Below, piece after piece: positions 3,368 to 56,270 of a stretch of DNA of 64,000 nt (position 1 is the first letter of the stretch; every line of letters begins with the position of its first letter). The stretch comes from Oscillospiraceae bacterium (GTDB lineage: Bacteria; Bacillota; Clostridia; Oscillospirales; CAG-272). The stretch covers positions 716 to 64,715 of the forward strand of contig SVQI01000008.1 of assembly GCA_015065455.1 (NCBI GenBank), in the 5' to 3' direction. The translations under genes and the position numbers were made by a program. A model generated the notes under the pieces. The model was not told where the DNA came from. It saw nothing but the letters and a program-made list of their open reading frames with translations, and ran no database searches.

Positions 3368-3411
3368 GAAAAGTTTTTGAGGATTCTAAAGGAGCTTTTT
3401 TAAAAAAGCGC
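3368..3411 (+). repeat. R1 repeat, short or degenerate copy
   Basis: AAAGTTTTTGAGGATTCTAAAGGAGCTTTTTTAAAAAAGCGC. It shares the AAGTTTTTGAGG...AAGG-NN-CTTTTTT/AAAAAAG-NN head and hairpin with the other R1 copies. Confidence 0.5.
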
Positions 3412-3454
3412 AATTAAAATATTATTTTAAAAAAATAATATAAGAATTATTATC

Positions 3455-3530
3455 AAAAGTTTTGAGGGAGTCAAGAGGGCACTTTTTTAAAAGTGCTCCT
3501 TTGATGTGGGTTTGGGAGTGAAACTCCCGG
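3455..3530 (+). repeat. R1 repeat, full copy
   Basis: AAAAGTTTTGAGGGAGTCAAGAGGGCACTTTTTTAAAAGTGCTCC...GGGAGTGAAACTCCC. Nearly identical to the copies at 14108 and 44623. Confidence 0.8.
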
Positions 3531-4506: not shown

Positions 4507-4833
4507 TTGCGCAAAAACATGACTCGGGAAGAAAGAATTTTGTGGTATGAATTATTTAAAAAATTACCTATCACAGTAAAAAGACAATATAGAATAGAAA
4601 ATTATATTGTTGATTTTTATATTGCGGAAAAGAAATTGATCATAGAAGTTGATGGAAGACAGCACCTTATGTCTGATTATAAAAATTTAGATGCAGTAAG
4701 GGACAAAAAACTTTTAGAATGGGGAATAGAAGTTATTCGTATACCCAATAAAGATATAAACGAAAATTTTAATGGAATTTGTAATTATTTATTAAAAAGA
4801 TTAGGATTTGTATACTCAGATTTAAAAAGATAG
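4507..4833 (+). CDS. DUF559 / Vsr-like endonuclease domain protein, possibly lacking a proper start
   Basis: YIVDFYIAEKKLIIEVDGRQH core typical of DUF559. Paralogous to the ORF at 18741-19118. The conserved N-terminal ARKLR segment lies upstream of the first usable start codon. Confidence 0.65.
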   Translation: MRKNMTREERILWYELFKKLPITVKRQYRIENYIVDFYIAEKKLIIEVDGRQHLMSDYKNLDAVRDKKLLEWGIEVIRIPNKDINENFNGICNYLLKRLGFVYSDLKR

Positions 4834-4848
4834 TATATTTTGAGAATG

Positions 4849-5104
4849 ACGACCTCATCCGTCACACCGCTTTTTGCATCTGATAAAGACCTTATTTATC
4901 AGCGGTGTGCCACCTTCTCCCACCGGAGAAGGCTCAAAATTAGCGCGTTTTCTTTGTTGTTTATTATGTGTTAATATTAATATTAATTTGAAAAAATAAA
5001 GGCAAAAGACTTTACTCTGCGCCTTCTCCGGTGGGAGAAGGTGGCGTTCCGCCAATATGTTTAATTTATTATTGTTTATAATGCGGCGCGACGGATGAGG
5101 TCGT
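4849..5104. repeat. 256-bp nested palindrome made of two inverted R3 units, with no ORF
   Basis: Outer inverted repeat GACCTCATCCGTC (4851-4863) / GACGGATGAGGTC (5090-5102). Inner perfect 25-bp inverted repeat GCCACCTTCTCCCACCGGAGAAGGC (4909-4933) / GCCTTCTCCGGTGGGAGAAGGTGGC (5021-5045). Confidence 0.85.
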
Positions 5105-5151
5105 AAAAAATAAACGACATTCTTTTGATAAGGTTGTCGTTTTTTTATTAT

Positions 5152-5204
5152 AAAGTTTTTTGAGGGACAAAAAGGGAACTTTTTTCAAAAAAGTTCCCTT
5201 TGTC
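5152..5204 (+). repeat. R1 repeat, short copy; it also serves as the terminator hairpin at the 3' end of the M3 peptidase gene
   Basis: AAAGTTTTTTGAGGGACAAAAAGGGAACTTTTTTCAAAAAAGTTCCCTTTGTC. Confidence 0.7.
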
Positions 5205-9995: not shown

Positions 9996-11378
9996 GTGTC
10001 AAAGGATATTAATAATTATGATAGATTTATATTACCTGACGGCGCGGAATCTGTTTTCTTTATCGGTATATGTGGAATAAGTATGTCGAGCCTTGCTTTT
10101 ATAACTCATACTCATGGCATAAAGGTGGGCGGCTCTGATACAAACGACGGAGAAATGGCAAGAAAACTCAGAGAGTCGGGAATAGAACTCTATATCGGAC
10201 ACTCCGCTGAAAATATAAAGGGCTACGATGCGGTTGTATACACAGCGGCAATTGCAGAAGATAATCCCGAGCTTATGTATGCAAGAGAAAACGGATTGCC
10301 TTGCATAAACAGAGCCGAATATCTTGGAAAGCTGATGCAGTCATATACAAATAAAATCGGAGTTGCGGGTATGCACGGAAAGAGCTCTGTTACGGGAATG
10401 ATTTCCCACGTATTTATTGAGTCGGGAAAAGAGCCTACTGTTCTTAACGGTGCGAATACTTATGAGCTCGACGGTGGTGCATATAAGATAGGAAGACAGG
10501 ATAGCTTTATTTTTGAGGCTTGTGAATACAAGGACAGTTTTCTGTCGTTTTATCCCGATATCGCCGTTTTGCTTAATCTTGAAATGGACCACGTTGATTA
10601 TTTTAAATCGCTTGACCAGATAAAAGAATCGTTTGCAAAATATGCAGATAAGGCAAGTACGGTTGTAGCATTTGGTAATGACGAAGACCTTATGGACGCT
10701 ATAAAAAACTATAAGGGAAGACTTGTTACCTACGGTGTTAATGACAATACACTTGATTTTTACGCCTATGATATAAGAGAAAACAGTCAAGGCTATGATG
10801 TTTTTAAAATTGGTCATAACGGTGAATTGTTGTGCGAGGTGGAGCTTGCAGTTCCCGGGGAGCATAACGTTGTAAACGCTACAGCGGCAATTACAGTTGC
10901 ATATCTTAACGGTATTGATGTTGGCGTTGCGGCTGAGAGTATGGGTACATTTAAGGGTGTAAACAGAAGAAGCGAATATAAGGGTACGGTAGACGGCGTA
11001 GTTATATACGATGATTACGCGCACCATCCGTCAGAAATAAAATCATCGCTTCACGGGCTGAAAAAGCTGTGCCGCGGTAGACTTTGGTGTGTATATCAGC
11101 CGCACACTTATTCAAGAACGGCAGGGCTTTTTGACGAGTTTTGCGAAAGCTTTGGCGAGGCTGACGAGGTTATCTTTGCCGAAATATATGCAGCAAGAGA
11201 AAAGAATACATTTGGTATATCTTCAAAGGACCTTGCTGACAAAATAGACGGCGCATTATTTATTGATAGTTTTGAAAAGATTGCAGAATATGTTAAAAAG
11301 AATGCAAAAGAGGGCGACCTTGTCGTATCGATGGGTGCGGGTGACGTATTCAAAGTACATCAGCTTTTGCTGAAATAA
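9996..11378 (+). CDS. murC: UDP-N-acetylmuramate--L-alanine ligase
   Basis: GICGISMSSLA and GVAGMHGKSS motifs of a Mur ligase. GTG at 9996 is preferred as the start because AAAGGAG lies 11 nt upstream. The ORF is open from GTG 9975. Confidence 0.9.
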   Translation: MSKDINNYDRFILPDGAESVFFIGICGISMSSLAFITHTHGIKVGGSDTNDGEMARKLRESGIELYIGHSAENIKGYDAVVYTAAIAEDNPELMYARENGLPCINRAEYLGKLMQSYTNKIGVAGMHGKSSVTGMISHVFIESGKEPTVLNGANTYELDGGAYKIGRQDSFIFEACEYKDSFLSFYPDIAVLLNLEMDHVDYFKSLDQIKESFAKYADKASTVVAFGNDEDLMDAIKNYKGRLVTYGVNDNTLDFYAYDIRENSQGYDVFKIGHNGELLCEVELAVPGEHNVVNATAAITVAYLNGIDVGVAAESMGTFKGVNRRSEYKGTVDGVVIYDDYAHHPSEIKSSLHGLKKLCRGRLWCVYQPHTYSRTAGLFDEFCESFGEADEVIFAEIYAAREKNTFGISSKDLADKIDGALFIDSFEKIAEYVKKNAKEGDLVVSMGAGDVFKVHQLLLK

Positions 11379-11404
11379 AATACTTAACTTTTATTTATTA
11401 AAAG

Positions 11405-11600
11405 TTTTTACGTTACTTTCTTGCGTGCCAAGAAAGTAACCAAAGAAGGCACAAGAGGAGGGGATTTCGATTTCCCCTCCTCTTGACTCCTACCCCTGAA
11501 ACGACCGAGGGCGTTCCTCCCTCGGTACCCCCCCTTTGTTCGCAGAAATGGTATTGCTTAATTATGTAGGGCGTATAACTTGACTTCCGCCCGTTTTTTT
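11405..11600 (+). repeat. R2 structured repeat, copy A (about 196 nt)
   Basis: TTACGTTACTTTCTTGCGTGCCAAGAAAGTAACCAAAGAAGGCACAAG is identical in all three copies. It is followed by a 13-bp purine/pyrimidine hairpin (11451-11484), a CCGAGGG...CCCTCGG hairpin and a terminal GGGCG...CGCCC hairpin plus T run. Confidence 0.85.
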
Positions 11601-11631
11601 AAAAGTAAGAATATAAAAAAACCTTTCCCTT

Positions 11632-12183
11632 TTAGCAAGGGAAAGGAAGATGATACGTATAAAAATTATCAAATTTTTTATCCGAGCAGACGGTTATTAT
11701 ATATCCGTCTGTTTCTTTATGTGAATAAATAAAAGTGTCCTCGGTTTTGTCAAAAAAACCGTTTCCGGTGAGCTTGCCCTTAGCCTCTCTTTTGGTCCAC
11801 TCTAACATATTTTCTGCAAATCTTTTTTTGACCAATGTCGAGAGCTCTTTGTCAAGCTCAATATCTATACCTACGGGTGTATCGGATATTGCGCATACTG
11901 CGTAGTCACCCGAATGAGAAAGGCTGAAATAAAATGGATTACCCTCTATATAGGGTTTGCCGTTTTCCATAGTCTTAAATGACAGATTTTCGTATTTGTA
12001 GTCTGTGCTGTCTTCTATTGCAAATCGTAATAGTGCGCCAAGTCCAATTGAACGCGCTTTATCTATGGGTAAAATAAGCTTATCGGCTTTTTGCTGTCTA
12101 TTAATATCAGTTTTGTCGTAGTAGTATTTATAAACGTCGGGTTTTAACAAAGGTGTAATATTAGTTATATAAACACAATTCAT
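11632..12183 (-). CDS. 4'-phosphopantetheinyl transferase (Sfp-type)
   Basis: GKPY....FSLSHSGDYAVCAIS..PVGIDIE motifs. The ATG at 12183 has a GAGGTG RBS. Confidence 0.75.
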   Translation of the reverse strand: MNCVYITNITPLLKPDVYKYYYDKTDINRQQKADKLILPIDKARSIGLGALLRFAIEDSTDYKYENLSFKTMENGKPYIEGNPFYFSLSHSGDYAVCAISDTPVGIDIELDKELSTLVKKRFAENMLEWTKREAKGKLTGNGFFDKTEDTFIYSHKETDGYIITVCSDKKFDNFYTYHLPFPC

Positions 12184-12240
12184 AAATATCACCTCTATTA
12201 TGATTTTAACATTATTAAAGGGGGATGTCAACTTATTCTA

Positions 12241-12268
12241 TTGATTTTCCGTTGTATTATGATATAAT
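12241..12268 (+). promoter_or_regulatory. sigma-A type promoter for the lipoate ligase gene
   Basis: TTGATT, a 16-nt spacer, then TG-a-TATAAT. Confidence 0.45.
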
Positions 12269-12325
12269 TAGGTATGAAAGACATTTTGTAAGATCTAATA
12301 AACAATACAAAATTAAGGTGTAATA

Positions 12326-13309
12326 ATGAAAATATACAGAAATAACAGTTTAGACCCTTACTTCAATCTGGCGGCGGAGCAATACTTGCTTGACTGCGAA
12401 GATAAAGAGGTGTTTATGCTGTGGAGAAACGATAACGCGGTTATCGTTGGGAAGAACCAGAATACGTATGCGGAAATTGACCTTGATTACGTAGAAAAGA
12501 ATAACATAAAGGTCGTGCGCAGACTGACGGGCGGGGGAGCAGTGTTCCACGATATAGGAAACGTGAATTTTACTTTTGTTGTTCCCGAAACATCAAATGC
12601 GACGCTCGATTTTGAGATATTTACAAAACCAATTATAAAGGCTATCCAAAATCTTGGGGTAGATGACGTGCATTTGTCGGGTAGGAACGATATAATGCTT
12701 GGTGACCGCAAAATATCAGGGAATGCGCAGACTCAGTATAACGGAAAGACGCTTCATCACGGAACGATTTTATATTCTGCCGATCTTTCAAAGCTTGCGG
12801 GCGCTTTAAGAGTTGATCCTGAAAAAATCAAGGCGAAAGGCATTAAGAGTGTTCGGAACAGAGTAGTCAATATATGCGACTGTTTAGAAAATAAAATGGA
12901 TACGGAAAGCTTTATGGCTTACCTCGAGGAATACGTTGAAAGCGAAACGAATTCGGAGATAGTTTCATTTTCTGCAGAGCAGATAGAAAAGATTCAAACT
13001 TTGGCAGATGAGAGATATTCAACTTGGGAGTGGAATTTTGGAAAGTCAAAAGATTTCTATACCGAGAAGAAAAAAAGATATTCTTTCGGAACAGTCGAAA
13101 TTGACCTGTCTGTGGAAAACGGAATTATAAAACAGATAAAAATTCTCGGTGACTTTTTTGGCATAAAAGATATATCTTTGGTTGAAGAGCTTTTGCTTAA
13201 TACAAGATATGAAAAAAACGATATCGAAAAGAAAATAAACGGCTGTGTTTTAGACGAGCACATATCAGGAATGACCGTTGATTTGTTTACAGAGCTTTTA
13301 TTTTCATAG
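12326..13309 (+). CDS. lipoate--protein ligase
   Basis: 327 aa with RRLTGGGAVFHDIGNVNFTF and ISGNAQ motifs of the LplA family. Confidence 0.85.
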   Translation: MKIYRNNSLDPYFNLAAEQYLLDCEDKEVFMLWRNDNAVIVGKNQNTYAEIDLDYVEKNNIKVVRRLTGGGAVFHDIGNVNFTFVVPETSNATLDFEIFTKPIIKAIQNLGVDDVHLSGRNDIMLGDRKISGNAQTQYNGKTLHHGTILYSADLSKLAGALRVDPEKIKAKGIKSVRNRVVNICDCLENKMDTESFMAYLEEYVESETNSEIVSFSAEQIEKIQTLADERYSTWEWNFGKSKDFYTEKKKRYSFGTVEIDLSVENGIIKQIKILGDFFGIKDISLVEELLLNTRYEKNDIEKKINGCVLDEHISGMTVDLFTELLFS

Positions 13310-13320
13310 GAGAAAAATAA

Positions 13321-14088
13321 ATGAAATACGGGCAATATGAGGCTTTGGCGTCTTTTTACGACGGGCTTAATCCCGACGTTGATTATCCGAAGTGGTGTGA
13401 ATTTATACAAAAAATTATAGAAAAGTTTGGAAATATAGAAACGAAGTTAGTGCTTGATCTTGCATGCGGAACGGGAAGTATGTCCGTTTTGCTTTCAAAG
13501 GCGGGGTATGAGGTAATAGGTGTTGACTTGTCTGCAGAAATGCTTATGGAAGCACAGCAGAAGGCGTTTGAAGAGGGAGAAAATATCTTGTTTTTGAATC
13601 AGGATATGTGCGAGATTGACCTCTACGGAACTGTTGACGCCTGCGTTTGCTGTCTTGACAGTATAAACTATCTTACTGAGGACGGACAGCTCAAAAAATG
13701 CTTTTCTTTAGTTAATAATTTTATGAATGACGGCGGACTGTTTATTTTTGATGTAAATACACCGCACAAGTTCAGAAACACGTATGGAAACAACGCTTAT
13801 ATTCTTGAAAACGAGGGCGTTTTGTGCGCGTGGCAGAACACGTTTAATGAAGAAGATGGAATATGTGATTTTGATCTATCGTTTTTTGTAGAGAAGAAAA
13901 ATGGAACATACGAGCGATTTGATGAAAGCCAAAGTGAAAGAATGTATAAAGACGAGGCATTAAGAAGCACATTGAAAGAATGTTCCTTTGACGTGTTGGG
14001 TGTTTATTCTGACTATGACTTTACAGAACAGACAGAAACTGACGAACGTTGGTATTACGTTTGCAGAGCAAACAATAAAAACAAATAA
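13321..14088 (+). CDS. class I SAM-dependent methyltransferase
   Basis: VLDLACGTGSMS (motif I). 255 aa. Confidence 0.8.
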   Translation: MKYGQYEALASFYDGLNPDVDYPKWCEFIQKIIEKFGNIETKLVLDLACGTGSMSVLLSKAGYEVIGVDLSAEMLMEAQQKAFEEGENILFLNQDMCEIDLYGTVDACVCCLDSINYLTEDGQLKKCFSLVNNFMNDGGLFIFDVNTPHKFRNTYGNNAYILENEGVLCAWQNTFNEEDGICDFDLSFFVEKKNGTYERFDESQSERMYKDEALRSTLKECSFDVLGVYSDYDFTEQTETDERWYYVCRANNKNK

Positions 14089-14107
14089 TATAAGTGCTTA
14101 TTTATAT

Positions 14108-14195
14108 AAAGTTTTTGCGGAGTCAAGAGGGGATTTTTTCAAAAAGCCCCTTTTGTCAAGGGTTCGGGAGCGAAGCTCCTGACATTCTGTGCTCC
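14108..14195 (+). repeat. R1 repeat, full copy
   Basis: AAAGTTTTTGCGGAGTCAAGAGGGGATTTTTTCAAAAAGCCCC...GGTTCGGGAGCGAAGCTCCTGACATTCTGTGCTCC. Confidence 0.8.
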
Positions 14196-14246: not shown

Positions 14247-14530
14247 ATAATATTGTCTTTTCTTTTTTTACGTTACTTTCTTGCGTGCCAAGAAAGTAAC
14301 CAAAGAAGGCACAAGGGGGCGGAGGTTTCGATTCCTCCTCCCCCTCGACCCCCAACCACCAAACGACAAAGGGGGATTACCCCCTTTGCACCCCCATCGT
14401 TTGCGAAAGATGGAAGGTTAGGTTATACTTTTTGTTTTTTAATGAAAATGTTCCTCCCTCGGTACCCCCCTTTGTTTGCTGAGATAATATTATTTAAATT
14501 TGTAGGGCGTATATCCTGCTCCCGCCGTTT
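14247..14530 (+). repeat. R2 structured repeat, copy B (about 284 nt, chimeric or partly duplicated)
   Basis: Same 5' block as copies A and C. It contains a variant middle module (CAAAGGGGG-ATTA-CCCCCTTTG) followed by a 5'-truncated canonical module (GTTCCTCCCTCGGTACCCCCC...). Confidence 0.8.
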
Positions 14531-18542: not shown

Positions 18543-18579
18543 TTTATCCTATTAATTTAAAGAATGCATTCCAATTCTT

Positions 18580-18693
18580 GCCTTCCTCTGACGAGGAAGG
18601 TGGCTTGACGTAAAGAAAAAGACGCGTTTTCTACCTATAAGTAAAGTTGGAAAGAAAACGCGTATTTTTTAGTCAAGACGGAAGGAGAGAGAA
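18580..18693 (+). repeat. R3 unit (P1 hairpin, P2 hairpin, purine-rich tail)
   Basis: P1 is GCCTTCCTC-TGAC-GAGGAAGGTGGC. P2 is ACGCGTTTTCT...AGAAAACGCGT plus a T run. The tail is GTCAAGACGGAAGGAGAGAGAA. Confidence 0.8.
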
Positions 18694-18740
18694 TGTGAAA
18701 GTTTACACGACAAAAAAATCTTGACTTTTTAAGGTAAAAA

Positions 18741-19118
18741 ATGAAACAGTATAACAAATCAAATGTAACGTTAGCGAAAAAACTGCGACGCGAACAAACA
18801 GAGTGGGAAAGAAAATTGTGGTATTGCTATTTGAGTAAATACCCAATAAAATTTCAAAGACAGAAACCTATAGGAGAATATATTGTCGATTTTTATTGTG
18901 CAAAAGCAAAACTTGTTATTGAGCTTGATGGATACTATCATACAACAGATAAACAGTATCAAAACGATAAAAAACGAACTGAAGAAATAAGAAAACAGCA
19001 CTTAACAATATTAAGATTTACAAACCAAGAGATAGAAACAAAGTTTAATGTAGTCTGTAAAAAGATAGATGCTTTTGTGAAAAGGAGTGTGGAGATTAAT
19101 GAAGTTGTGGAAAGTTGA
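18741..19118 (+). CDS. DUF559 / Vsr-like endonuclease domain protein
   Basis: 125 aa with LAKKLRREQTEWERKLWY and YIVDFYCAKAKLVIELDGYYH motifs. Confidence 0.75.
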   Translation: MKQYNKSNVTLAKKLRREQTEWERKLWYCYLSKYPIKFQRQKPIGEYIVDFYCAKAKLVIELDGYYHTTDKQYQNDKKRTEEIRKQHLTILRFTNQEIETKFNVVCKKIDAFVKRSVEINEVVES

Positions 19119-19121
19119 TTA

Positions 19122-19231
19122 TTCTCTCTCCTTCAGTCTTGGCTAAAAACTCGGTATTTTCTTTGATTAATTATCAAGGAAGAAAATACCGAGTTTTTTT
19201 ACGCCAATCCAGCTTCCTCGTCAGAGGAAGC
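19122..19231 (-). repeat. R3 unit, inverted copy
   Basis: TTCTCTCTCCTTCAGTCTTGGC matches the reverse complement of the left tail at 20/22 positions. P2 is CTCGGTATTTTCT...AGAAAATACCGAG. P1 is GCTTCCTC-GTCA-GAGGAAGC. Confidence 0.8.
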
Positions 19232-19294
19232 CGAGTGGGAGCTGAATTTTATTGTTTTACTTATAATTTTATTATAAACAATAAAGAGGACTTT

Positions 19295-23947: not shown

Positions 23948-24082
23948 TACAAGGCTTGATGTGCGTTGAAGCGAGAGGTTGCTGTAGAAATACAGGTAAT
24001 TTTCGTGGAGTATGTCCGATATTTAACCGGGCGACAGCAAATTGCTAAACACTTACCCGTGCGTTTTTGCGCGGACGTTACC

Positions 24083-44590: not shown

Positions 44591-44622
44591 AATTATTTGT
44601 TATAGTCAACACTTGTATTTAT

Positions 44623-44711
44623 AAAAGTTTTGAGGGAGTCAAGAGGGCACTTTTTCAAAAAGCACCTTTGGTGTGGGTTCGGGAGCGAAGCTCCTGACGT
44701 TCTGTGCTTCC
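44623..44711 (+). repeat. R1 repeat, full copy
   Basis: AAAAGTTTTGAGGGAGTCAAGAGGGCACTTTTTCAAAAAGCACC...GGTTCGGGAGCGAAGCTCCTGACGTTCTGTGCTTCC. Confidence 0.8.
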
Positions 44712-44731
44712 AGAAATAATCTCTCTTTTTA

Positions 44732-44789
44732 CCTCCATCTGACGAGGGAGGTGGCATTTTCGTTAGAAAATGACGGAGGGAGAGAAAAG
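44732..44789 (+). repeat. R3 unit, solo compact copy
   Basis: P1 is CCTCCATC-TGAC-GAGGGAGGTGGC. P2 is CATTTTC-GTTA-GAAAATG. The tail is GACGGAGGGAGAGAAAAG. Confidence 0.7.
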
Positions 44790-44805
44790 CAAACGTTTTA
44801 AACAG

Positions 44806-45010
44806 ATAATATTGTCTTTTCTTTTTTTACGTTACTTTCTTGCGTGCCAAGAAAGTAACCAAAGAAGGCACAAAGGGGAGAGGGAGTTCCGATCCTCCCC
44901 TCCCCTTGACCCCTCCCTTTCAAACGGCCGAGGGCGTTCCTCCCTCGGTACCCTCCCTTGTTCACAGAAATGGTATTGCCTGTTTTGTAGGGGCATTATA
45001 CGCCCGTTAT
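44806..45010 (+). repeat. R2 structured repeat, copy C
   Basis: Same 5' block as copies A and B. The long hairpin is at 44871-44908 with a different stem sequence that still pairs. Confidence 0.85.
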
Positions 45011-45044
45011 AAAATAAGCTTCAAATTTTTGTTTTTTTCGTTTG

Positions 45045-45093
45045 AAGTTTTTGGGGAGTTTAAGAGGGGCTTTTTTCAAAAAGCCTCTCTTAT
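45045..45093 (+). repeat. R1 repeat, short copy
   Basis: GAAGTTTTTGGGGAGTTTAAGAGGGGCTTTTTTCAAAAAGCCTCTCTT. Confidence 0.65.
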
Positions 45094-45146
45094 TAAAAAA
45101 CCACCTGCATCTTATTTGCAAGTGGTTTTCTTTTATCTATAAATTA

Positions 45147-56178: not shown

Positions 56179-56270
56179 GGAGAGATGGCTGAGCTGGTCT
56201 AAGGCGCACGACTGGAAATCGTGTGAACGCTAATACCGTTCCGAGGGTTCGAATCCCTCTCTCTCCGCCA
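56179..56270 (+). tRNA. tRNA-Ser (anticodon GGA), with CCA encoded
   Basis: Manual cloverleaf. Acceptor GGAGAGA/TCTCTCC. Anticodon stem CACGA/TCGTG with loop CTGGAAA. Long variable arm GAACG...CGTTC. T arm GAGGG-TTCGAAT-CCCTC. Confidence 0.9.

Follow-up and report, generated by a model that had tools for sequence, protein, structure and literature searches.

A modular, high-copy intergenic repeat of an Oscillospiraceae lineage carries a predicted pseudoknot core that recurs in several bacterial phyla

Dispersed structured repeats are common and are usually genus-specific hairpins. The REP sequence, short and imperfectly palindromic, begins with GTAG or GTGG, and the gene encoding RAYT, a Y1 HUH protein, is typically flanked by REPs. 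An orientation polarity linked to replication is known for the single-strand transposition of IS200/IS605. To our knowledge, a pseudoknot is a feature neither of IS200/IS605 ends nor of REP ends. At the level of RNA structure, U•A-U and C+•G-C triples in the major groove require a parallel pyrimidine strand on a homopurine/homopyrimidine stem, and such triples are known from the telomerase, SAM-II and ENE/MALAT1 structures; in the 3'-end triple helices of MALAT1 and of the PAN ENE, the order of the strands is U-rich linker, U-rich strand and A-rich strand.

The element described here, named R2, is present in a window of 64,000 nucleotides (the whole stretch of DNA analysed) from an Oscillospiraceae bacterium, and belongs, in broad terms, with the REP/BIME mosaics and with miniature elements that have no transposase. 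As in REP/BIME and REPINs, the copies are numerous and extragenic, favor gene 3' ends and convergent spacers and are assembled, in varying combinations, from short hairpin modules; M5, the terminal module (GTAGGGGC..GCCC at 44987-45006, also at 11566-11593), is similar to a REP, and the Ralstonia relatives of R2 are found as inverted doublets, as REPINs are. Unlike a REP, however, the core of R2 combines an AT-rich hairpin of 12 bp with a covarying pseudoknot and is not a GTAG palindrome, and its host belongs to a Clostridia lineage. Unlike REPINs, the copies of the window are single, lie on one strand and are co-oriented with replication, doublets being restricted to the Ralstonia relatives. 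No RAYT (Y1 HUH) gene was found beside the cores, whether among the neighbors of 130 cores, in the 64 kb window or in the ~150 kb of a related MAG that were readable. The BOX, RUP and bcr1-type repeats of Firmicutes are, like R2, intergenic repeats of Gram-positive hosts, modular and structured and 100-300 nt long, but they have no sequence similarity with it and are genus-specific, whereas the R2 core is cross-phylum. A sequence-conserved, covarying pseudoknot core common to several phyla appears to be previously undescribed.

A 47-nt block (TTACGTTACTTTCTTGCGTGCCAAGAAAGTAACCAAAGAAGGCACAA) occurs exactly three times in the window, where none would be expected by chance, at 11408-11454, 14268-14314 and 44827-44873, always on the + strand. 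These exact matches are in agreement with the first-pass annotation, which had reported three same-strand copies, called here A (11405-11600), B (14247-14530) and C (44806-45010), with an identical 5' block in each. Their location in gaps between convergent genes was also confirmed for all three, and the flanking genes are of housekeeping type: a Mur ligase and a PPTase-like protein for copy A, a methyltransferase and a GNAT protein for copy B, a phosphoglucomutase and a peptidase U32 for copy C. Beyond the block, alignment and repeat finding showed that the similarity extends over ~150 nt and comprises two more hairpins and a terminal GC hairpin, in the order of a variable purine/pyrimidine hairpin, a C-rich linker, a GC hairpin, a further C-rich stretch that contains a small AT hairpin, and finally the terminal GC hairpin. 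Both strands fold much better than shuffled sequences (z about -4.6 to -6), with equal z-scores for the + and the - strand. The description of R2 as a repeated, structured and non-coding element is supported by these data. Copy C is the only one to overlap an ORF of 100 aa or more (44840-45142), and a protein-coding function of R2 was ruled out because the indels between copies are not multiples of three.

The pseudoknot core of copy C occupies 44831..44871 and is delimited by the exact block, by a stem present in every fold and by the covariation of loop and partner in relatives; its assignment to the - strand comes from the G·U pairs of these relatives, as discussed below. The stem arms, 44831-44842 (GTTACTTTCTTG) and 44848-44859 (CAAGAAAGTAAC), enclose the loop CGTGC (44843-44847) and are followed by the linker CAAAGAA (44860-44866) and by the loop partner GGCAC (44867-44871), which would pair with GTGCC at 44844-44848. 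The cores of copy A (11412..11452) and copy B (14272..14312), likewise assigned to the - strand, have the same sub-parts with offsets of -33419 and -30559, respectively. In copy C the core is preceded by an AT-rich lead-in with a T-run (ATAATATTGTCTTTTCTTTTTTTAC, 44806..44830), which is the 3' half of M1, a module made of an AT-rich hairpin and a T-run that is found upstream of the core in most copies and is absent from copy A. Relative to the core stem, the T-run sits before and the A's after.

The variable purine/pyrimidine hairpin, M3, follows the core at 44873..44907 in copy C (AAGGGGAGAGGGAG / loop TTCCGATC / CTCCCCTCCCCTT), at 11452-11485 in copy A and at ~14313-14346 in copy B. Its loop is TTTCGATT or TTCCGATC, and its stems differ among the three copies yet pair. 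At least five stem variants were counted, with the pairing kept in all of them; an optional 45-nt hairpin is nested inside M3 in some copies of the MAG, and the mismatch types in M3 are mixed and give no strand preference. The changes in this stem had been taken as compensatory: the pairing is indeed kept, but independent compensation is not supported, the stem variants being discrete module types common to paralogous copies. A repeat acting at the DNA level would be equally expected to show compensatory changes in the downstream hairpins, so that such changes are by themselves no indication of an RNA gene. The proposed resemblance of the M3 loop to a T-loop was not retained. The T-loop of a tRNA has 7 nt (UUCRANY) on a 5-bp stem in a tRNA-like fold, whereas the M3 loop has 8 nt (TTYCGATY), and ARAGORN and Rfam detected only a tRNA-Ser at 56179 in the window and nothing tRNA-like at R2.

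Downstream of M3, copy C contains a C-rich unpaired linker (GACCCCTCCCTTTCAAACGG, 44908..44927) that reads as a G-rich, Shine-Dalgarno-like sequence on the - strand, then the M4 hairpin CCGAGGG-CGTTCCT-CCCTCGG (44928..44948), another C-rich stretch containing a small AT-rich hairpin (TACCCTCCCTTGTTCACAGAAATGGTATTGCCTGTTTT, 44949..44986, repeat family D5) and the terminal REP-like module M5, formed by GTAG and the GC hairpin GTAGGGGCATTATACGCCCG (44987..45006). The C-rich stretches differ from copy to copy. Three covarying variants of M4 were observed. The CCGAGGG..CCCTCGG form announced for R2 is present in copy C and in copy A (11505-11525), but in copy B it is replaced by CAAAGGGGG-ATTA-CCCCCTTTG (14367-14388); this variant is followed by ~75 additional nt and by a second module in truncated form (14450-14462). 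M5 is found at ~14504-14528 in copy B and, followed by T7, at 11566-11593 in copy A. A GC-rich hairpin with a T-run directly after it, as expected of an intrinsic terminator, is limited to the last hairpin of copy A (CGCCCGTTTTTTT, 11588-11600), and a terminator scan made no call at the last hairpin of copies B and C; of the terminal hairpins with a T-rich stretch described for copies A and B, only that of copy A has a clear T-run.

The element had also been considered a self-contained unit of about 190 nt, which our results do not support; R2 is one arrangement of exchangeable modules within a larger repeated region. At copy C this region extends from ~44617 to 45100 and includes other repeat families, which are joined to the copy at 44617..44805 and lie outside R2 proper. 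Among them are the R1/D1 hairpin module (44618-44695), upstream of copy C, and the module M0 (44725-44785), organized as CCTCC-ATCTGACGA-GGGAGG-TGGC-hairpin-GACGGAGGGAGAG.

The core was scanned against one genome per species, and it was matched only in the MAG of Oscillospiraceae bacterium SIG632, with 26 copies, many of them at contig ends. In this MAG the modules are mixed, nested, duplicated or missing from one copy to another, M5 is present one or more times per copy and also independently of the core, in both orientations, and copies that share a contig share their strand. Roughly 10 of the 17 scorable copies lie in spacers between convergent genes. In contigs of gut metagenomes, the depth over the core is ~94-190x that of the unique flanks, a ratio to which other species in the samples may contribute, and the depth differs from module to module. 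The MAG contig L004 is syntenic with positions 10769-14154 of the window at 76-82% nucleotide identity and has a copy at each of the two sites occupied by A and B; the core of these copies is 100% identical to that of the window, and their variants of M3 and M5 are different. Moreover, a non-orthologous site of the MAG (L011) has the M3 variant seen in copy A. The repeat family is therefore old at the sites of copies A and B, and its modules are undergoing replacement or conversion. The core itself is either strongly constrained or continually homogenized. No repeat longer than ~460 nt was found among the loci compared. The left junction in the window lineage consists of a T-run and then AYG, and no clean empty site was seen for this lineage among metagenome contigs, because these contigs break at the repeats.

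The exact core had no match in viral contigs or JGI metagenomes, nor the core in phage and E. coli collections. Sensitive BLAST of plasmids and chromids revealed core-like sequences in Ilyobacter polytropus (Fusobacteriota), Pseudoalteromonas, Ralstonia, Caballeronia/Burkholderia, Paraburkholderia and Subdoligranulum variabile. Some replicons of Caballeronia/Burkholderia carry the core at 40 places or more each, and a degenerate scan of the JGI metagenomes (ACTTTCTTTG-N6-CAAAGAAAGTAA) gave at least 120 loci. The relatives have in common a stem ACUUUCUUUG / CAAAGAAAGU, a loop of 5-6 nt, an A-rich linker (AA-S-CAAAGAAA) and then a complement of the loop of 4-5 nt. In the family as a whole, the core is described as a pyrimidine/purine hairpin of 12-13 bp, whose stem is homopurine/homopyrimidine in every lineage, with a pseudoknot linker of 8-12 nt.

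The loop and its partner change together. The combinations found include CTGCTG/GCAGC, CTTCGC/GGCGA, CTTGTG/CACA and CCGCCG/GCGG, as well as TGCGGC/GCCGC, CTTGTC/GGACA, TTTGGG/GCCCA and CTGGCA/TGCC, and 28 distinct loop/partner helices of at least 4 bp were counted among 54 unique sequences. Contiguous Watson-Crick runs have a mean length of 4.07 in these sequences, compared with 2.39 in shuffles (5000 shuffles, sd 0.12, maximum 2.98), so that the observed mean lies ~14 sd above the shuffles and was reached in 0 of 5000. A pairing of the CGTGCC loop with the downstream GGCAC had been envisaged from the window itself, where the pair is GTGCC/GGCAC. Because loop and partner covary across the relatives, this pairing can be considered a conserved pseudoknot, and folding of the invariant block of the core, as a single strand, into an H-type pseudoknot is strongly supported by the covariation.

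The first-pass annotation had taken the + strand as the folded one, whereas the G·U patterns of the relatives favor the complementary strand. The outermost pair of the stem covaries in these relatives (G-C in 30, C-G in 20 and A-U in 2). At the pair lying two positions inward, the complementary strand has U·G in 29 or U-A in 25, while the same position on the + strand is a C·A mismatch in 61% of the sequences. In a variant of Burkholderia sp. RPE67 the wobble is flipped: the complementary strand has G·U, the + strand A·C. Owing to the frequency of the C·A mismatch, the fold strand is probably the - strand of the window; this is an extrapolation from the proteobacterial relatives, since the stem is perfectly Watson-Crick in the window lineage. 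Signals of the opposite sense are a G·T that is conserved in the optional hairpin nested in M3, a terminal pseudoknot pair compatible with G·U in the GGCAT variants and the loop type of Ralstonia, which all favor the + strand. The loop lengths are also more classical on the + strand, with ~3 nt over the deep groove and 12 nt over the shallow groove.

On the complementary strand the linker reads UUUCUUU and is parallel to the purine strand of the stem, AAAGAAA, in most lineages; the window and Subdoligranulum have AAGAAA as the purine strand and UUCUUU as the linker. Stem and linker change together across lineages with the parallel register kept, and the AAGAAA/UUCUUU form breaks the mirror symmetry that would make antiparallel pairing equally good. 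As the linker repeats one strand of the stem, it could occupy the major groove and form a U•A-U/C+•G-C triplex there, a reading that depends essentially on one asymmetric lineage. The fold strand would resemble the triple-helix pseudoknots of telomerase RNA, SAM-II, preQ1-II and ENE/MALAT1 by its pyrimidine linker, its pyrimidine Watson-Crick strand and its purine strand, and the parallel register would allow six or seven U•A-U/C+•G-C triples in the core. In contrast to these systems, the R2 core is multi-copy and dispersed, has no association with a riboswitch-type ligand or with a gene, and its triplex is deduced from sequence. The loop lengths would equally suit a classical pseudoknot of the + strand, with the A-rich loop in the minor groove. 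It seems doubtful, though conceivable, that the core is a bacterial counterpart of the eukaryotic and viral triple-helix RNA stability elements, carried by horizontally spreading repeats that encode no protein in at least three phyla. If the triplex were real, its extreme stability on one strand would explain the survival of a single orientation relative to replication, and the core could generally block exonucleases or polymerases.

A comparison with described RNAs was made by an Rfam scan of the window, in which no family matched R2 either at the gathering thresholds or at E<=10, in agreement with the earlier statement that R2 belongs to no named RNA family. Two Rfam models nevertheless touch the core in its relatives, both on the complementary strand, which speaks for this strand as the folded one. 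RF02421 (Bp1_684) reaches 45.4 bits in a Burkholderia-type relative, for a threshold of 44, but has no match in the window at E<=10. In the Burkholderia-type contig L035 it spans the 3' half of the long stem together with the neighboring GC hairpin and ~70 nt beyond, on the strand proposed here for the fold. It differs from R2 in that the model omits the pseudoknot partner and the linker, and in having been described as a single sRNA gene and not as a multi-copy repeat; its source is Bp1_Cand684_SIPHT, a B. pseudomallei sRNA candidate positive by RT-PCR (PMC3521395). RF01731 (TwoAYGGAY), read along the fold strand, immediately precedes the pseudoknot on its 5' side in Pseudoalteromonas (L026) and in the metagenome contig L045, that is, in the place of the M3/M4 hairpins of R2, and the 3' tail of the model overlaps the first strand of the pseudoknot in both. 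The hairpins of R2, however, match no TwoAYGGAY model, their loops being RATCGRAA and not AYGGAY. A search of the literature by sequence and by topic gave nothing on the R2 core, the report on Bp1_Cand684 (PMC3521395) being the sole related paper. No RNA run containing the R2 locus was found. In metatranscriptomes selected through the ribosomal operon, the organism was barely present and coverage was limited to the unrelated module M0, and the runs that match the element itself are of a type not stated and of low depth.

These data bear on the hypothesis that R2 is, on the + strand, a family of independently transcribed, trans-acting sRNAs whose C-rich stretches would serve as seeds against Shine-Dalgarno sequences. 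The significant folding, the single-stranded C-rich stretches between stable hairpins and the AT-rich upstream module, which by inspection could hold a weak promoter, are consistent with such a family. It is nevertheless very improbable: a promoter scan of the + strand gave no passing hit at any copy, the C-rich stretches vary among copies, modules are freely swapped or lost, the G·U evidence favors the opposite strand and no RNA contig supports it.

Several known types of element were also considered. A DDE-type MITE was ruled out, as the ends of R2 are unlike each other and have no inverted repeats, and as the Ralstonia comparison presented below shows no target duplication. An integron attC site, a CRISPR repeat, an ωRNA/reRNA and a type III antitoxin were rejected as well; the grounds for these rejections are the lack of inverted repeats and target duplication, the housekeeping flanks, and the absence of a variable guide beside the fold and of an adjacent gene.

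The position of the copies leads to another hypothesis, in which R2 would act at the RNA level as a 3'-UTR or inter-terminator module for its convergent neighbors, blocking 3'-5' exonucleases or read-through in the manner of REP stabilizers or, if the triplex forms, of ENE/MALAT1. The convergent spacers noted above for all window copies and for the majority of scorable MAG copies agree with it, as does copy A, which starts 27 nt past the stop of the murC-like gene with no terminator between and ends with a hairpin and T7. In addition, the conservation of the core at orthologous sites exceeds that of the flanking genes, parts of the relatives are catalogued as RNAs (RF02421, RF01731), and the order of U-rich linker, U-rich strand and A-rich strand on the fold strand is that of the known 3'-end triple helices. 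On the other hand, canonical terminators already precede copies B and C, some copies lie between divergent genes, and the bias of orientation relative to neighboring genes in metagenome contigs is weak (41 vs 29). In Burkholderia, moreover, the conserved sequence continues 3' of the pseudoknot, and ~100 or more copies, together with nested insertions and tandem arrays, would rather be expected of selfish repeats. We consider this hypothesis unlikely.

The orientation of the copies follows replication. The GC skew of the window is positive (~+0.1), which identifies its + strand as the leading-strand sequence, and the + form of R2 is on the locally G-rich strand in 23 of 25 MAG copies and in all three window copies (26/28 together). 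Orientation tracks the direction of replication better than it tracks the orientation of the upstream gene; in short proteobacterial contigs no GC-skew orientation bias was detectable. Such a polarity, with the + form on the lagging-strand template, is an established signature of IS200/IS605, and R2 could then be a single-stranded DNA mobile element, derived from IS200/IS605 (PATE) or from REP/RAYT, of which a Y1 HUH transposase encoded elsewhere in the genome would recognize the core hairpin in the lagging-strand template, excising and inserting copies during replication. R2 further resembles IS200/IS605 and PATE in its hairpin-based ends and in having neither terminal inverted repeats nor target duplication. 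The terminal module of GTAG and a GC hairpin would also fit, and the patchy spread across phyla together with the highly conserved core suggests horizontal transfer. The polarity could equally arise, however, if the more stable fold were tolerated only on the leading-strand template.

Against mobility of this type, clustering of the neighboring ORFs around 130 cores identified no linked protein family shared by them, the clusters being common families (LysR-like, SDR-like) or spurious ORFs that lie over the repeat; no tnpA/tnpB with matching ends lies beside these cores, and no Y1 transposase or shared gene was found there or in the loci examined. The G·U pattern apparently assigns the selected fold to the complement of the lagging-strand template, a pseudoknot between loop and downstream sequence is foreign to the known ends of IS200/IS605 or REP, and copies A and B keep their position between species that differ by ~20%.

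The only case of presence and absence was found in Ralstonia solanacearum, where two elements lie tail-to-tail between glgX and glgB. In a near-identical strain exactly 450 nt are missing at glgX-glgB, and one small GC hairpin is kept. The absence corresponds to a derived precise loss, since more distant strains are occupied, and neither a target duplication nor terminal inverted repeats were seen in the comparison of the occupied and empty sites. Such REPIN-like inverted doublets that can be precisely lost are in agreement with a single-stranded DNA element, but the loss is also explicable by the instability of a large palindrome, and no insertion event was seen. Taken with the points raised before, we regard mobility through a Y1 HUH transposase as a possible, though not a probable, origin of the copies. 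Elsewhere, a tandem duplication of 480 nt in Burkholderia sp. RPE67 and tandem units of 142 nt in the contig L102 point to recombinational expansion.

We therefore favor, with about an even chance of being right, an interpretation in which R2 is a modular, high-copy arrangement of intergenic repeats with the core as its functional handle, the copies being maintained by recombination or conversion. The core would be a very stable, strand-specific fold, as RNA or as single-stranded DNA, and the conserved handle of the repeat family; it would be recognized by a putative trans-acting factor or would act alone as a block to nucleases or polymerases. Copies would be multiplied and homogenized by recombination or gene conversion among themselves. 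M3, M4 and the GTAG hairpin M5 are exchangeable cargo modules specific to each lineage.

Structured extragenic repeats are a known kind of element, of which Rfam models, in the relatives of R2, only a flanking fragment (RF02421) or a neighboring domain (RF01731). Here, a core of ~45 nt and its covarying pseudoknot are kept across Bacillota, Fusobacteriota and Beta- and Gammaproteobacteria with no model in Rfam 15, at ~100 copies per genome in the window lineage and at 40 or more places per replicon in some relatives. A core that is conserved across phyla, in high copy number and without an Rfam model constitutes a well-defined target, and cultured carriers exist (Ralstonia solanacearum, Caballeronia, Ilyobacter polytropus, Subdoligranulum variabile). 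For the gut lineage, repeats of the R2 type break metagenome assemblies, and their masking is advisable in searches for small RNAs. For the family, the core may tie the orphan Rfam entries Bp1_684 and TwoAYGGAY to one family of modular elements, and it offers a handle on the factor that multiplies or maintains such repeats.

A structured module distinct from R2, the modular intergenic repeat, was found three times in the window and is named M0 (18577-18700, + strand; 19120-19235, - strand; 44725-44785, + strand). Its layout is CCTCC-ATCTGACGA-GGGAGG-TGGC-variable hairpin-GACGGAGGGAGAG, with covariation in the first stem (CCTCC/GGAGG versus GCTCC/GGAGC), and no match to M0 was obtained in Rfam. 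The third copy lies directly 5' of R2 copy C, and the first two form an inverted pair bracketing an ORF of 125 aa (18741-19118), a DUF559 gene with a Vsr-like endonuclease fold. In gut metagenomes the depth of M0 is very high, and metatranscriptome contigs also contain the module, in a wide variety of flanking sequences.

A second DUF559-like ORF, 40% identical to the first in a tblastn comparison (4507-4833, + strand), has on its 3' side a long inverted-repeat structure (4849-5104) with CCTTCTCC..GGAGAAGG-TGGC hairpins, the design of which resembles M0. Taken together, the two cases suggest an association of the DUF559 gene with the repeats.

A further repeat family has the sequence TTTTGAGGGAGTCAAGAGGGCACTTTTTCAAAAAGCACC, in many cases with GGGTTCGGGAGCGAAGCTCCTGAC after it; it occupies the same intergenic regions (3374-3527, 5142-5183, 14098-14179, 44613-44695 and 45034-45096) and is present upstream of R2 copies B and C. 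At the ortholog of the copy B site in the related genome Oscillospiraceae bacterium SIG632, this family is found in tandem. Downstream of R2 copy C, the PyrR binding-site model matches below its threshold over two terminator-like hairpins (45014-45136, + strand; 34 bits where 54 are required, E 0.006), probably a chance likeness of repeat hairpins. The S10-Clostridia ribosomal-protein leader (23957-24037, + strand; 45.2 bits), upstream of a ribosomal protein operon, is consistent with a Clostridia origin of the window.

Among the proteobacterial relatives, the glgX-glgB spacer of a Ralstonia solanacearum strain (L152, 1480-1950) carries an inverted doublet of elements of roughly 230 nt each. 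This doublet (450 nt) is precisely missing from a strain with 99.5% identical flanks (L153), which keeps a single small GC hairpin, and other strains have 67 nt extra at the same site. Elsewhere the proteobacterial element forms tandem arrays of 142-nt units (L102, 1000-1330, + strand, with an inverted counterpart), and a 480-nt tandem duplication in Burkholderia sp. RPE67 (L151, 1080-1720) extends over the 3' end of an MFS transporter gene that lies upstream.

In two sequences unrelated to each other (a Pseudoalteromonas locus, L026, 1535-1698, - strand; and contig L045, 941-1064, - strand), the orphan Rfam family TwoAYGGAY was located immediately 5' of the pseudoknot core, the invariant 5' block of R2, and shares its strand. 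TwoAYGGAY may therefore not be a stand-alone RNA but one of the exchangeable modules of the R2-core repeat family.
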